Assembly: GCA_951406725.2 (NCBI GenBank)
Contig: OX597827.1
Span: 42,036,001 to 42,100,000 of the forward strand
DNA: 64,000 nt
Reading direction: 5' to 3'
From: Octopus vulgaris
Lineage: Eukaryota
The notes under the pieces were generated by a model. It saw only the letters and a list, made by a program, of their open reading frames with translations. It was not told where the DNA came from and ran no database searches. Shown here in pieces: positions 1,424 through 60,750 of the stretch (its first letter is position 1; every line of letters begins with the position of its first letter). The translations under genes were made by a program, and so were the position numbers.

Positions 1424-1690
1424 TATATTAGAAGAAATGAGGTACTCAGAAAATCGGATGGTTTATATTTACAGATATTTATTTGTATATTACATTTTTT
1501 ATACATCATATAGGTGAAGTTTGATTTGAAAACCCCACTAGAATGGGAGAAAGCGCTAATACTTGATCTAAGTGATATGATGTATAAAAAATGTAATATA
1601 CGAATAAATATCTGTAAATATAAACCATCCGATTTTCTGAGTACCTCATTTCTTCTAATATAAAATACATGTACATCATCTCCAAACTTT
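1424..1690. mobile_element. Palindromic non-coding element, family P1 (Penelope-like terminus?)
   Basis: Inverted arms 1424-1511 and 1575-1662; homologous to the 28908-29304 element; inserted in (TA)n. Confidence 0.8.
1521..1560 (+). ncRNA. Hammerhead-like motif, U3:A8 variant
   Basis: TTGAAAA-c-CCCA(ctagaa)TGGG-a-GAAAGCGCTA: core-like heptamer, stem II, GAAA and palindromic stem III AGCGCT. Stem I is weak. Confidence 0.4.
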
Positions 1691-2178
1691 GCCCCAGCAT
1701 GGCCACAGCTCATGAGCTGAAACTAGAATCAATCAATATATATATATATATATATATATATATATATCGGTTTCATATATACATAAAGAGACCGATAGAA
1801 TAAGTGCTGGGCTACGATTTGCTCGACTAAAGGCGGTGCTCCAGCACGGCCACAGTCAAGTGACTGAAACAAGTAAAAGAGTAAAAGACGCCACAGTTTG
1901 AAGCGTTTCAGTTTCTTCCTTAGAGCTTGAAATTAGATTGCATTCCGTTTGTGTTGCTTTTCATTCTTCGCATATTTTGGATACTTTAGCTAATTCTGAC
2001 GCATCTACTGGTGGTGGCGGTGGCAGCAGTGGTGGTGATGGTGATGATGGTGGTCGTCGTCGCCGTCTTCGTCGATTTGGTGGTGGTGGTGGTGGTGGTG
2101 GTGGTGCATACATGCATACACACACACACATATATATATATATATATATATATATAAATGTGGATTATTATACTACTA

Positions 2179-2588
2179 AGTGGCCGTGTGGTAAGTAGCT
2201 TGCTAACCAGCCACATGGTTCCGGGTTCAGTCCCACTGCGTGGCATCTTGGGCAAGTGTCTTCTGCTATAGCCCCGGGCCGACCAATGCCTTGTGAGTGG
2301 ATTTGGTAGACGGAAACTGAAAAGAAGCCTGTCGTATATATGTATATATATATATATGTATGTGTGTGTATGTGTTTGTGTGTCTGTGTTTGTCTCCCTA
2401 GCATTGCTTGACAACCGATGCTGGTGTGTTTATGTCCCCGTTACTTAGCGGTTCGGCAAAAAGAGACCGATAGAATAAGTACTGGGCTTACAAAAGAATA
2501 AGTCCCGGGTTCGAGTTGCTCGATTGAAGGCGGTGCTCCAGCATGGCCGCAATCAAATGACTGGTAAAAGAGTAAAAGAGTAAAAGAG
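2179..2588 (+). mobile_element. SINE family A, near full length
   Basis: Consensus head, internal (TA)/(TG) tract and (GTAAAAGA)n tail; TACTAA on both flanks is a possible TSD. Confidence 0.85.
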
Positions 2589-3057
2589 TACTAAAAAGCT
2601 CTGTGGACATTTTACTTTTTATTTTTTATGACTGAGCTCAAACACTTTTTGCCTTGCATAATTACTTTATACAATTGTCCGTACATACGCAGATACGCGC
2701 ACAGACTCACGCAAATACGCTCATAAAAACTGCTTGTCGAAAATCCATACATGCCCACATAGACAATAAAAAGCAAATTGTATATGATGCGCTCTTACAT
2801 CTGAGCTCTTTGATCAGAACAGTATTTCTTCTAAGAAATATCAGCCGCCTTACTTATTAGCGTTCGCATTATGCAACATGCTTCATTTTTTTCTTGACAA
2901 AGTGCACCTATCCGAAACGTTAAGTTTCTTCTGTTTCTTCTTATCTTGTCTTTAACGTCTGCTGCTTTTTCCATTGTTATTGTTGTTGATGCTGCTGCTG
3001 TTGTTGTTCCTTTGCGGAATGTCAAGCTTGATCAAACAGATCTATATATGATATAAG

Positions 3058-3360
3058 TGGAGGCACATGGCATAGTGGGTAGAATAGCGGACTCTCGGTC
3101 GAGGAATCACGGGTTCGAATCTCAGACCGGGCAATGTGTGTGTTTATGAGCGAAACAACTAAGTTCCACGCGGCTCTGGCAGAAGGTAATGGCGAACTTC
3201 TGCTGACTCTTTTGCCACAACTTTCTCTCACTCTTTCCTCCTACATCTCGCAGCTCACCTGCGACAGGCCGGCGTCCCGTCCAGGTGGGGAACCTAAACG
3301 CGAATGAAACTGGGAAACCGGCCCTTATGAGCCAGGCTTAGCTCGAAAAGGATCAAACAA
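3058..3360 (+). mobile_element. SINE family D (tRNA-like head)
   Basis: GGAGGCACATGGCATAGTGG (A box) and GGTTCGAATCT (B box); homologous to 45183 and 54917; (CAA)n tail. Confidence 0.65.
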
Positions 3361-5166
3361 AAACAACAACAACAACAGCAACACCAACATATATGATATA
3401 ATGTAATCCGTTTCAGCCATGACTGTCCCATCAGTTTTTGGATACAGGACAATATGAATCCACTGCTTTCCTTCTATTTACAAAAATTAAAACAACAATA
3501 AGAGAGGATAAGATGTTATTGAGGTGCATTAGCTGTTATTTCTAGAATGTCTGGTGATCAAGCATAGGCTCCTGCTTGAAGATGTGGCTCGTAATGATGT
3601 AAAGCAGGAAGTATGAATTGTACAGTTGTTATTATTGCTATTGTTTTTGTTTAACCTTCAGATCAACTCGATCGAGCAAACTTACAGTAAGATGATTTCC
3701 ATCCATGACCATCAGTCATCAGCTTTTATTCAGACATAGTACACCAAGGGTAACATCATTCAGATCGACCTTCCTGCTTCGTAAATCACCAGCGTATGAC
3801 TTCTAGCACGATTATCGACCGTGTACGGGCTTTTTCATTATCACATCATGTAACGGTGAATGGTGGAGGTGTTACTAATGGTGTTGCTGGCGGTGTATTA
3901 ATGGGGACGCGGCGATGGTGGTGGTGTTGGTGGTAGTGGTGGTAGTAGGAGTAGTAGCTACGGTGGTAGTTTTGGTGGTGACGGTGATGCTGGTAGTTCA
4001 AGCAGTGATGAACATTGATATTGATGCTGTTGGGAAAATGGTGGCGATGGTTTTGGTTGTGGTGAGGATACTGACTGTGGTAGTGGTAATGCTGTGGGAG
4101 GAGGTACTAGTAATAGTATTAGGATTGTCGGTGGTGTAGTTGGTGGTTGTCACTAGCGTTGATGTTGTTGTTGATGGTGGTGAAGATGGTAGTGGTGGCA
4201 GAAGTAGTAAATGTACTGCTTGTAGTAGTACTGGTAGTAGTAGAGGTGGTAGTAGTAATGGTGGCGGTGGTGGTAACGGGGTTGTGTTGGTCGCTGTAGT
4301 CTTCATAGAGACAATGGTGGTGGTGGTAATGGCGATGTAGTTAATGATGATGGTGGTGGTAGTGGTTGCGGTGATAGTGGTAGTGGTGGTCGTGGCAGGG
4401 TTGGGTGAAGTAATAATCTTTTATTAATGCGGCCATGATGCTTAATTTCTTCAAATAATTGTCGCACACAAACGCATCCCACCACCCTACTTTCCTGCTG
4501 CACTCCCTCCCTTCCTCCGCACCAAATAATCGAACAAACAAACAAAGTAAAAATGACAGAAGGAAAGAAAGACGAAAAGATATAAACAAACAAACAAACA
4601 AACACGCAAACAAATAAATAAATAACTGATGAGACAAAGAAAAGGAACGAGAGAGCGAAAACTCGGTTCAAATGATAAAGATGAATAAATTAAAGCAAAA
4701 ATGAAAAAAAAAATAATGAAAATAATTATATAGCCTCAAAAAGACACCACCCACACCACACAACAACAATAACAATAACATCAAAAACAAATACAACGAA
4801 ACAAAAACCACAATGATACCAACATATGTAGACTTAAGATTAATATTGTTTTTGTGAATGGTGTATGTTTGTGTGTGCGTGTGGGGGCATATGTGTATGA
4901 ATGTGTGTGTGTGTGTGTATGTGGATGCATGTGCGCGCGTGTCTGTGTGGGTATGTGTGAGTGTGTGAGTGTGTGAGCGTGTGTGGGTGTGTAACCCAAA
5001 ATCTGTACGTGAATCAATGTGTATGTTTAGTTATATACATGGAGATTTTTTACGTGTATTTGGGGGGGGGGGTGCACGTACGTGTCTATGTGTGGGAATG
5101 CGCATGTGTCGGCATTTCTGGACGTGTCTCTCTGTATAATAACAAAAATAAGGATGATAATAATTA

Positions 5167-5348
5167 TACTACTACTACTACTACTACTACTACTACTACT
5201 ACTACTACTACTACTACTACTTCTTCTTCTTCTTCTTCTTCTACTACTACTACTACTACTACTACTACTACTACTACTACTACTACTACTACTACTACTA
5301 CTACTACTACTACTACTACTACTACTACTACTACTAATAATAATAATA
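5167..5348. repeat. Compound trinucleotide microsatellite (CTA)n/(TTC)n/(TAA)n
   Basis: Seen directly in the sequence. Confidence 0.95.
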
Positions 5349-59357: not shown

Positions 59358-59660
59358 CAGTACTTCATGGCCAACGATATTTTGTGAGTATGTCACGCCA
59401 CGTTTTTGGCATTGTCTGTTATCCCAATTGAGTGTCATATCTCTTACTTTAATATTGTTCATAGCTCGTGCTCTTGAAAATATGACACATAATTGGCCAT
59501 GAGAAAATACCAGTTGAGGCAAATGTATTCCAACTTTTTCAAATGTTTGCCCTTGAACCTTATTAATTGTCATTGAATATCCAAGTCGAAGTGGAAACTG
59601 TAGTCTGTTTAGTGTGAATGGAATATTTGCATCACTTGGGCTAAGTTTAATAATGGGAAT
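59358..59660 (-). pseudogene. Helitron Pif1-like helicase C-terminal fragment
   Basis: PFTLNRLQFPLRLGYSMTINKVQGQTFEKVGIHLPQLVFSHGQL...SRAR...NIVGHEVL. Confidence 0.88.
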
Positions 59661-59886
59661 TTCTTTCCGTTTCTTCTGGCATGCAGTTGTTGAAAATTTC
59701 TGGATACAAATGTACAAATTGAAATGCAAAAGAACGAAATAATAAATGGATTTATGAATGAAAGTTTGGTAATTGCGTTTATTTCCACCAAGCGACACTT
59801 ATTGCAGACATGTTTTAACTAACCCATACTATATACACACGCAAATACATTCATATATATATATATATATATATATATATATATAT

Positions 59887-60215
59887 AACAATTGCAGCGT
59901 GGAAGGAAGGTGTTTATAAGCCATTTAAGAAACACTCAAAGAGCGTTAGATTCACTTCAACATTTAAATTTAATTTGCCAAAATATTTTCGTCACTTTGA
60001 GACCGTGGCCTGTTCACTGACAAAATTCCGTGCTGCATTTGAGCAGCTCAGACGCAGCACGGAATTTTGGCAAATTAAATTTAAATGTTGAAGTGAATCT
60101 AACGGTCTTTGTGTGTTTCTTAAATGGCTTATAAACACCTTCCAAGCTGCAATTGTTTTCGTTCCACCACACGATCTCAGATCAGATCACTTGCTATGCA
60201 AGTACATCTCCATAA
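59887..60215. mobile_element. Palindromic element, family P2
   Basis: Arms 59887-60044 and 60046-60157, unpaired tail to 60215; in (TA)n; the right arm lacks the HHR. Confidence 0.85.
59975..60023 (-). ncRNA. Type I hammerhead motif with G3:C8 core
   Basis: Minus strand TTGTCA-GTGAACA-g-GCCAC(ggtctcaaa)GTGAC-GAAAATATT-T-TGGCAA. Confidence 0.55.
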
Positions 60216-60227
60216 TATATATATATA

Positions 60228-60430
60228 AAGTTAATCCAAACACGAAAACAAAAAACACAACAACGCAAGGACGTGGAACAAATAAAGTATTATTGGACGC
60301 TCAGGAAAGAAGGGAAGAAGGAGGGTTTAACGTTTCGAGCGGAGCTCTTCGTCGGAAACATAGGAGAAGGAAAGATCCCGAGAAGGGAAGACAGAGGGAA
60401 AAAAATCGCCGGTGGTACTCACGAGGTCAC
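60228..60430 (-). mobile_element. Family P5 terminal element with minimal HHR (60325-60359)
   Basis: Homologous to 25040-25236; minus strand GTTT-CCGACGA-a-GAGC(tcc)GCTC-GAAACGTT-AAAC; ends GGATTAACTTT(AT)n. Confidence 0.7.
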
Positions 60431-60582
60431 ATACTGAAAGACGTAAGTAGTAAGGTAGAAGAATAATAATGTTTTTTAAAGACAGGAGAATTTATCAAAG
60501 ACAGTATGGTAAAGAAAGTGAGAAGGGAAATGTGCATATATATATATATATATATATATATATATATATATATATATATATA

Positions 60583-60750
60583 ACGGGAACATTTACGAAA
60601 ATAAACAAAAGACGAAGGCAGGTGGAGTACAAACAAACAAATGTATTAGTATAGCGCTCAGGGATAGAAATAGAAAAAGTCTTTTACGTTTCGAGCCTAC
60701 GCTCTTCGACAGAAAGATACACAGAAAAAAATAAGGAGAGAAACAAGGAG
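60583..60750 (-). mobile_element. Family P4 terminal element with HHR-like motif (60680-60717)
   Basis: Minus strand TCTTT-CTGTCGA-a-GAGC(gtag)GCTC-GAAACGTA-AAAGA. Confidence 0.65.

Follow-up and report, generated by a model that had tools for sequence, protein, structure and literature searches.

Short palindromes that carry hammerhead ribozyme (HHR) motifs and lie in (TA)n runs raise the question of whether they are mobile elements in their own right or the remains of longer ones. The locus considered here is a 64,000-nt stretch of the Octopus vulgaris genome (2.8 Gb; OX597827.1:42,036,001-42,100,000), hereafter called the window, in which a self-comparison confirmed six predicted fold-backs from four sequence families, with arms that are 78-98% complementary. 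The original prediction regarded them, together with several single-arm relatives, as a guild of non-autonomous ribozyme retroelements mobilised in trans. We consider it highly probable that most of these elements are instead the cut-off 3' ends, or pseudo-long terminal repeats (pLTRs), of endonuclease (EN)-bearing Penelope-like elements (PLEs), and that the hairpins were likely built at insertion, when an inverted, 5'-truncated copy was joined head to head.

The 11 predicted sites were assigned to seven families, designated A (sites 1424 and 28938), B (17781 and 59887), C (20112), D (24571 and 60228), E (19790 and 60583), F (10040) and G (44380). Thus, of the presumed single-arm relatives, the one at 60228 indeed belongs to family D, whereas the others represent the three further families E, F and G; additional families met outside this list are called H, I, J and K. 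For each family, the best 30 genome loci were retrieved, a sample that is biased towards copies near the window copy, and statistics on orientation, flanks and tails are based on 277 loci after removal of 23 window or duplicate loci. An unselected sample comprises the first 100 matches of each genome-wide pattern, in which pairs at a distance of up to 1 kb were counted by eye. The exact patterns matched the genome 6,144 times for B, 6,395 times for F, 373 times for C and 1,205 times for the head of F; these totals are lower bounds on abundance and not copy numbers.

One argument for the PLE origin comes from longer copies elsewhere in the genome. As had been claimed, the window elements themselves contain no PLE open reading frame (ORF): a tblastn search with seven PLE proteins over the window (E<=1e-5) gave no match. 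By contrast, a reverse transcriptase (RT) and/or GIY-YIG ORF was found next to longer copies of A, B, D, E and F. In family A, a GIY-YIG domain preceded by a CxxxxCxxC linker lies 1.2-1.6 kb upstream of the A end at two loci (L151 and L153) and was also present upstream of A at two loci chosen by a Pfam PF01541 search blind to A (L485 and L486); the PF01541 match is above the cut-off. In 21 of 28 loci, the B end is located downstream of an EN in the same orientation, and L396 carries an open frame of 839 aa with RT and EN motifs, as judged from a motif alignment and Atlas. For D, fragments of a PLE ORF were detected upstream in five of 16 long copies, and at L432 two D repeats flank the ORF at a distance of 5,969 bp; here, the RVT_1 match is weak and the EN was identified by tblastn to family E. 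An E-like end follows the RT in 13 of 16 loci and is found on both sides in five (direct repeats flank the ORF in L289-L292 and L296), and L291 is a complete pLTR-ORF-pLTR element with an open RT plus GIY-YIG frame and an RVT_1 match above the cut-off. In family F, fragments of the RT thumb and the EN end around 35 nt before a tRNA-like head of the terminal repeat in L494 and L495, which are duplicates of one decayed insertion; among 20 further EN copies, 18 continue into this head and 13 into the HHR-bearing body. In A and B, the HHR sits at the 3' end of the coding copies. The columns C, C, H and H and the YxGxT motif of the GIY-YIG domain are invariant across six proteins, and a CX2-5CxxC linker precedes the EN in A, B, D and E, while none is visible in F. 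Judged by these sequence links, families A, B, D, E and F are the 3' ends of PLEs with longer coding copies elsewhere in the genome, which makes a separate non-autonomous guild unneeded for five of the six fold-backs (A, B and D) and for E and F; the idea of non-autonomy is retained for C and, probably, G. The absence of a coding master element, by which non-LTR retrozymes are recognised, is accordingly not seen in A, B, D, E and F.

Several candidate links were rejected. A GIY-YIG ORF of L163 was ruled out as the B protein, as this 847-aa family ends in a different 3' sequence, and the ORF at L153:1-1077 belongs to another family that is interrupted by A. The ORF of L154 was not retained for D, as its relatives end in E-like repeats, and the D link was therefore re-examined on other copies. 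The same locus contains, nested in the 3' untranslated region (UTR) of a D copy, a different element (L154:6945-7330) whose HHR has a long helix II. Three young PLE families with many near-identical open ORFs were also encountered: H (847 aa, L286:2935-5475, minus strand) and I (781 aa, L480:545-2887, plus strand), both with a U3-A8 core, and J (L484:282-2003, plus strand), which has a C-G core.

The anatomy of the copies matches the published insertion signature of PLEs. The 3' end is fixed in every family, or there are two such ends (a short end and a short end plus tail), while the 5' ends are variable and, in the fold-backs, the centres vary among copies. Where two copies lie on opposite strands, they point outward in 53 cases and inward in one, and outward pairs are likewise the only ones among the unselected matches (outward to inward 9:0 for B, 6:0 for F and 9:0 for C). 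Inverted pairs are scarce in D (0/54 loci) and E (2/29). The predicted (TA)n setting holds for families A to E, with (TA)n at 31/31 3' ends of A, 49/54 of short D, 23/23 of short C, 24/32 of E and 53/96 of B against a background of 4-6%, but not for F, where it was found at one of 46 ends. Family F also departs from the claim that target site duplications (TSDs) are lacking, since direct repeats of at least 8 nt are present at 15/28 loci compared with 85/756 mismatched control pairs, and one such TSD spans both arms at a target that is not (TA)n. An unpaired extension on one arm was said to be usual and was seen in five of the six window fold-backs, the exception being 24571-25366; genome-wide, the tail is confined to one arm in 3/3 pairs of A, 13/15 of B and 17/17 of F. 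Tail classes are unreliable for C, because of tandem continuation, and for G, whose reference has no tail.

The 5' ends are not distributed in the same way in all families. While no pile-up was found in A, the longer arm of B stops at one 5-nt site in seven of nine unselected fold-backs, 11 of 16 unselected D copies stop 73-85 nt before the core, and 49 of 78 F matches begin within -15 to +5 of the tRNA-like head, with only two extending further upstream (20 of these loci had been selected by the head). Such points may be transcription starts, or sites of microhomology and stalling. The B end site, located 23-45 nt upstream of the core in L335 and L396, resembles an intron 3' end, with a branch-like motif, a pyrimidine tract and AG, and also an initiator motif. 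As for the distribution along the genome, contig C16 is over-represented among the long and EN-bearing B copies nearest to the queries, and F matches are concentrated at 0.17-5 Mb of contig C1, which holds 41 of the first 100 in the list, and are far sparser deeper in.

By sequence, the elements contain minimal type I HHRs with the core, three helices and a 3-8 pair. A relaxed descriptor gave 10 matches at eight window sites and none in each of 10 shuffles; as it was tuned on these families, this shows non-randomness and not sensitivity. An Rfam scan of the window contained no hammerhead among the 150 matches listed of 479. All motifs present in the fold-backs read outward, as had been stated, but an HHR does not occur in every arm: two of the 12 arms (left of 1424 and right of 59887) lack it, helix II is deleted at 24829 and 17781-18042 has two decayed cores. 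In 493 overlapping loci (1.96 Mb), a descriptor that leaves positions 3 and 8 free gave 397 matches, compared with seven, nine and 14 in three shuffles, and 372 of the 397 have a Watson-Crick 3-8 pair (237 C-G, 79 G-C and 56 U-A). One pair dominates each of nine groups, namely C-G in four, U-A in four and G-C in one, family B. The G3-C8 core occurs in 94 of the first 100 of all B matches and is retained, together with a 7-bp helix I, in young ORF-linked B copies. Other variants are a C4 core in 57 of 59 D copies and a U6 core in 50 of 52 E copies, both counted among copies near the queries, a split of the first 100 C matches, which are mostly canonical, into 67 CUGAUGA and 31 CCGAUGA cores, and a mismatch at 10.1-11.1 in A, H and J. 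Within families, the core is conserved above the remainder of the element only in B (p 2e-5) and E (p 1e-7). Since copies decay neutrally after insertion, covariation across families is the better evidence, and the three different 3-8 pairs support a ribozyme core that has probably been under selection. The exchange C3G/G8C is known to rescue hammerhead cleavage in part (PMC11167929; here and below, statements on published work refer to the accessible portions of the papers cited).

Families C and G differ from the remainder in that they are non-coding tandem repeats. The C unit comprises 583-588 bp with a longest ATG frame of 48 aa, and the G unit, of which tandem copies are present, around 465-515 bp with one of 74 aa; both thus show the hallmark of retrozymes, a non-coding tandem unit with one type I HHR per unit. 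Of 26 C loci, 13 are truncated inside the unit, and the 13 with a full unit all continue into the preceding one; L159 holds a C multimer. At the same time, C and G share the PLE-type end signatures and occur mostly as dispersed, truncated copies. The unit-to-unit joint was found in RNA contigs of four runs, which cannot reveal ends, strand or circles, and is also present in the genome. Taken together, C is non-autonomous and G probably so, and a PLE protein likely moves both in trans. Family F had looked non-autonomous, too, before unselected copies were inspected; G is the family least examined in that way.

The terminal repeat of F opens with a tRNA-Ser-like module, which lies some 35 nt downstream of the stop codon and is followed by (AAT)n. 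Its similarity to a genomic tRNA-Ser(GCT) is weak, with a score of 52.5 where 500 shuffles reached at most 51.0, and its A and B boxes fit the consensus. ARAGORN and Rfam made no tRNA call on the head, and Rfam reported neither a tRNA nor an HHR on one F copy. The head is present in 19 of 29 F loci selected by the body, in seven of them also in the inverted copy, and 15 of 20 loci selected by the head contain the body on the same strand; this co-occurrence indicates that the head belongs to the mobile unit. The 5' ends of short F copies cluster at the head, yet the coding element contains this head, too, which is why the idea that F is a stand-alone tRNA-derived short interspersed element (SINE) was dropped. 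Transcription by RNA polymerase III (Pol III) from the head is predicted by these features and would open a possible SINE-like route; the absence of a T4 run between head and tail in two of three full-length F copies is compatible with it. Intact tRNA-Ser(GCT) genes were noticed at L158:7044-7127 and 9128-9210, in opposite orientation. No report of a tRNA-headed pLTR, or of a natural G3-C8 PLE hammerhead, was found in the literature covered, which excludes supplements, Repbase/Dfam and most subscription papers and makes this a weak absence.

How could such elements arise? The GIY-YIG domain would nick the target, as the literature suggests, whereby the families with a CX2-5CxxC linker (A, B, D and E) would go to (TA)n and the linker-less F elsewhere, leaving TSDs. 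The RT would prime at either of two positions within the RNA, producing either the short end or the end plus tail, and would usually halt within a few hundred bases, so that short pLTR cDNAs would remain as stumps. Either another cDNA or a copy made by self-priming would be joined at the 5' side by microhomology, the HHR being inherited as cargo of the pLTR; the motifs would read outward because the joining is 5' to 5'. C and G, as non-coding units with the same end chemistry, would be moved by the same protein. If the second arm were made by a simple snap-back, the tail should always lie on the longer arm, which was not observed: the tail falls about equally often on the longer and the shorter arm (17 versus 16), and in A, B and F together it is found on the longer arm in 16 pairs, on the shorter in 12 and on arms of equal length in five, a distribution that fits two separately primed cDNAs. 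The chimera of D and a SINE in both arms of 24571-25366, however, fits a snap-back and likewise the copying of one cDNA or of one chimeric RNA. Fold-back copying, to which the hairpins had originally been ascribed, is one candidate source of the second arm.

The explanation closest to the original prediction treats every family as an independent non-autonomous ribozyme retroelement whose short RNAs are moved in trans; in a softened version, pLTR-only RNAs from an internal promoter would also give rise to most of the short copies in the coding families. It draws on the ORF-free tandem units of C and G, on the continuation of every full-unit C copy into the preceding unit and on the 5' pile-ups of F, B and D, and it is opposed by the continuity of A, B, D, E and F with PLE ORFs and by the lack of a pile-up in A. 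Moreover, the pile-up sites of B and D carry CAT/ATAT, which is able to anneal to (TA)n, so that microhomology also accounts for them; overall, we regard this explanation as unlikely. Clearly less probable still is an origin of the hairpins after insertion, by DNA fold-back repair at cruciform-prone (TA)n and without reverse transcription. The 96 (TA)6+ runs of the window would provide sites, and the SINE fragment shared by both arms of 24571-25366, whose junction with D was found in two of 40 scored matches, i.e. in the two arms of this locus only, would suit such an event, but the almost exclusive outward orientation, the tail on a single arm and the F TSD that encloses both arms outside (TA)n speak against it. 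Almost no weight is left for miniature inverted-repeat transposable elements (MITEs), or for foldback DNA transposons, that a DDE transposase mobilises and in which HHR-like motifs would be incidental. The elements are short, palindromic, ORF-free and TA-flanked, as MITEs are, yet the majority of copies have one arm only, a fixed 3' end and a variable 5' end, centres differ, the ORF links lead to RT/GIY-YIG and the 3-8 pair is kept in nearly all descriptor matches. Fixed symmetric terminal inverted repeats with a constant TSD in all copies, which would have pointed to a DNA transposon, were not found, and the warning against a MITE label as well as the appeal to PLE machinery, minimal type I HHRs with palindromic stem III and inverted partial copies proved sound.

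Several observations nevertheless count against the view that most of the elements are PLE 3' ends. The catalytic core of the RT was not seen in A and F, where the copies examined contain only the thumb and the EN. The B protein has no Pfam match, nor do the F fragments, and the assignment of F is based on tblastn matches with E values of 1e-9 to 1e-11 and on an Atlas match (PF26215 clusters). The B, E and F elements of the window share 76-91% identity with the ORF-linked copies seen and thus derive from related, older subfamilies and not from these copies themselves. Among the 22 ORF-bearing loci compared, a small sample, no driver of C or G was detected, the matches being simple repeats and one inserted G piece. 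The fixed 5' pile-ups in B, D and F are unexplained by random truncation, and within A, C, D, F and G no significant excess conservation of the core was obtained (p 0.055-0.79).

The features of the window are collected in Table 1; identities of window copies to ORF-linked copies range overall from 81 to 98% in D and from 76 to 82% in F.

Table 1. Hammerhead-bearing elements of the window, with positions relative to its first nucleotide.
Position	Family and type	Strand	Tail or extension	HHR core	Structure	Identity to ORF-linked copies
1424-1662	A, fold-back		1663-1690	1526 (+), U3/A8	short inverted arm 1424-1511 without HHR, longer arm to 1662	88-90% (GIY-YIG-linked copies)
10045-10194	F, single 3' end	-		10190, damaged	truncated before tRNA-like head; outside (TA)n	
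17781-18042	B, fold-back		18043-18102	17903 (-) and 17919 (+), both decayed (C3/C8 and A3/C8)		86-89%
19790-19952	E, single 3' end	+		19832, damaged		78-82%
20112-20971	C, fold-back		20013-20111, first 99 nt of following tandem unit	20390 (-) and 20696 (+), C4 subfamily	583-588 bp non-coding tandem unit	
24571-25366	D, chimeric fold-back		none	24829 (-), helix II deleted; 25103 (+), intact	D 3' end at 24700-24875 and 25057-25237, fused to SINE fragment at 24572-24704 and 25233-25365 (133 bp per arm)	
28938-29304	A, fold-back		28912-28937, left arm	29076 (-); 29166 (+), helix I altered		95-96% for arm (L151, L153, L485, L486)
44385-44620	G, copy	+		44413	part of ~465-515 bp non-coding tandem unit	
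59887-60157	B, fold-back		60158-60215	60017 (-), G3/C8	HHR of right arm deleted	86-90%
60228-60430	D, single 3' end	-		60355		91-98%
60583-60750	E, single 3' end	-		60712, U6 variant		86-91%

Some further features of the window were not part of the predicted set. A canonical minimal HHR with a 6-bp helix I and an 8-nt palindromic stem III is located at 46620-46680 (plus strand, core at 46628), and a weak inverted relative of this element was noticed at 45711-45871. Different families are stacked on common (TA)n runs, with B, D and E across 59850-60750 and E beside C at 19790-20971. Microsatellites are abundant, and more local inverted repeats were seen at 10709-11298, 14694-15172, 21055-21568, 41880-41960, 44785-45067 and 54637-56043, several of which look like SINE pairs; the SINEs of the window presumably resemble octopus SINEs.

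Most of these properties are known from PLEs. EN-bearing PLEs of the Neptune/Nematis type combine an RT with a C-terminal GIY-YIG domain and a CX2-5CxxC linker, possess HHR-bearing pLTRs and are 5'-truncated, and their insertions show an adjacent inverted, 5'-truncated copy, an optional one-sided tail and a bias towards (TA)n (PMC8557442), as well as head-to-head junctions with palindromes or microhomology, which were interpreted as self-priming (PMC3846280). By the linker motif, A, B, D and E appear to resemble this clade, without a choice between Neptune and Nematis; they differ in having tails of 30-100 nt, microsatellite-rich 3' UTRs of 0.5-3 kb and, in B, a very divergent RT (21-26% identity to other PLE proteins). 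Family F is closer to the Poseidon/Penelope clade, with which it shares the lack of a visible CX2-5CxxC linker, variable TSDs, the tail and the inverted copy, and the finding that a PLE RT starts inside the RNA at two tail-bounding sites would account for its two 3' ends (PMC11167929); the tRNA-Ser-like start of the pLTR and the adjoining (AAT)n set it apart, and its placement in the clade is by motif only. According to the same study, HHR cleavage is dispensable for insertion in vitro. The PLE repeats of metazoans have been described to contain minimal HHRs with a short helix I, an extra nucleotide after A9, palindromic stem III and, in known cases, a U3-A8 core; single motifs were attributed to truncated PLEs, and pairs on opposite strands occur 100-700 bp apart (PMC4209133); the octopus families differ from them by a G3-C8 core across a family of thousands of copies and by the C4 (D and part of C) and U6 (E) cores. 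C and G resemble the non-LTR retrozymes of animals, which consist of non-coding units in tandem, each with a type I HHR, and for which movement by PLEs was proposed (PMC7229834; bioRxiv 10.64898/2026.07.22.740005), but their units are longer (~465-588 bp versus ~300), are known here from DNA and occur mostly as dispersed, truncated copies with PLE ends. A Pol III-type promoter upstream of an HHR is known from SINE-like repeats of Schistosoma (PMC6765202), and tRNA sequences inside terminal repeats from Helenus and Ajax, which are terminal-repeat retrotransposons in miniature (PMC10886601); in F, by contrast, the carrier of the tRNA-like module is a coding PLE, which has it in its terminal repeat, and not a tandem repeat or LTR element. 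Recently active Penelope families have been listed in an octopus, and ribozymes are unmentioned in the accessible portion of that account (PMC13282606).

Taken together, the window elements are real, made by PLEs and mostly ordinary for their class, the less usual features being the G3-C8 core of B and the tRNA-like head of F. For genome curation, this means that PLE stumps, and not MITEs, make up many of this genome's short palindromes. Young, open PLE ORFs from several families are present in the genome along with non-coding passengers that have the same ends, and this material can be used to address questions left by earlier work (PMC8557442), namely how the inverted copy and the tail are formed, how (TA)n is chosen and which role the HHR plays. 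It is tempting to speculate, although we hold this for somewhat doubtful, that F is a PLE with a captured tRNA-Ser gene that opens its pLTR and yields short Pol III RNAs from head to tail, inserted by the PLE protein by the thousands, and that B contains a working natural G3-C8 hammerhead, a double exchange hitherto cited as a rescue mutant made in the laboratory. If this were true, F would be a SINE-like element that arose inside a Penelope element and is moved by it, and its tRNA-headed repeat could illustrate, as a candidate, the origin of Pol III-driven hammerhead repeats.

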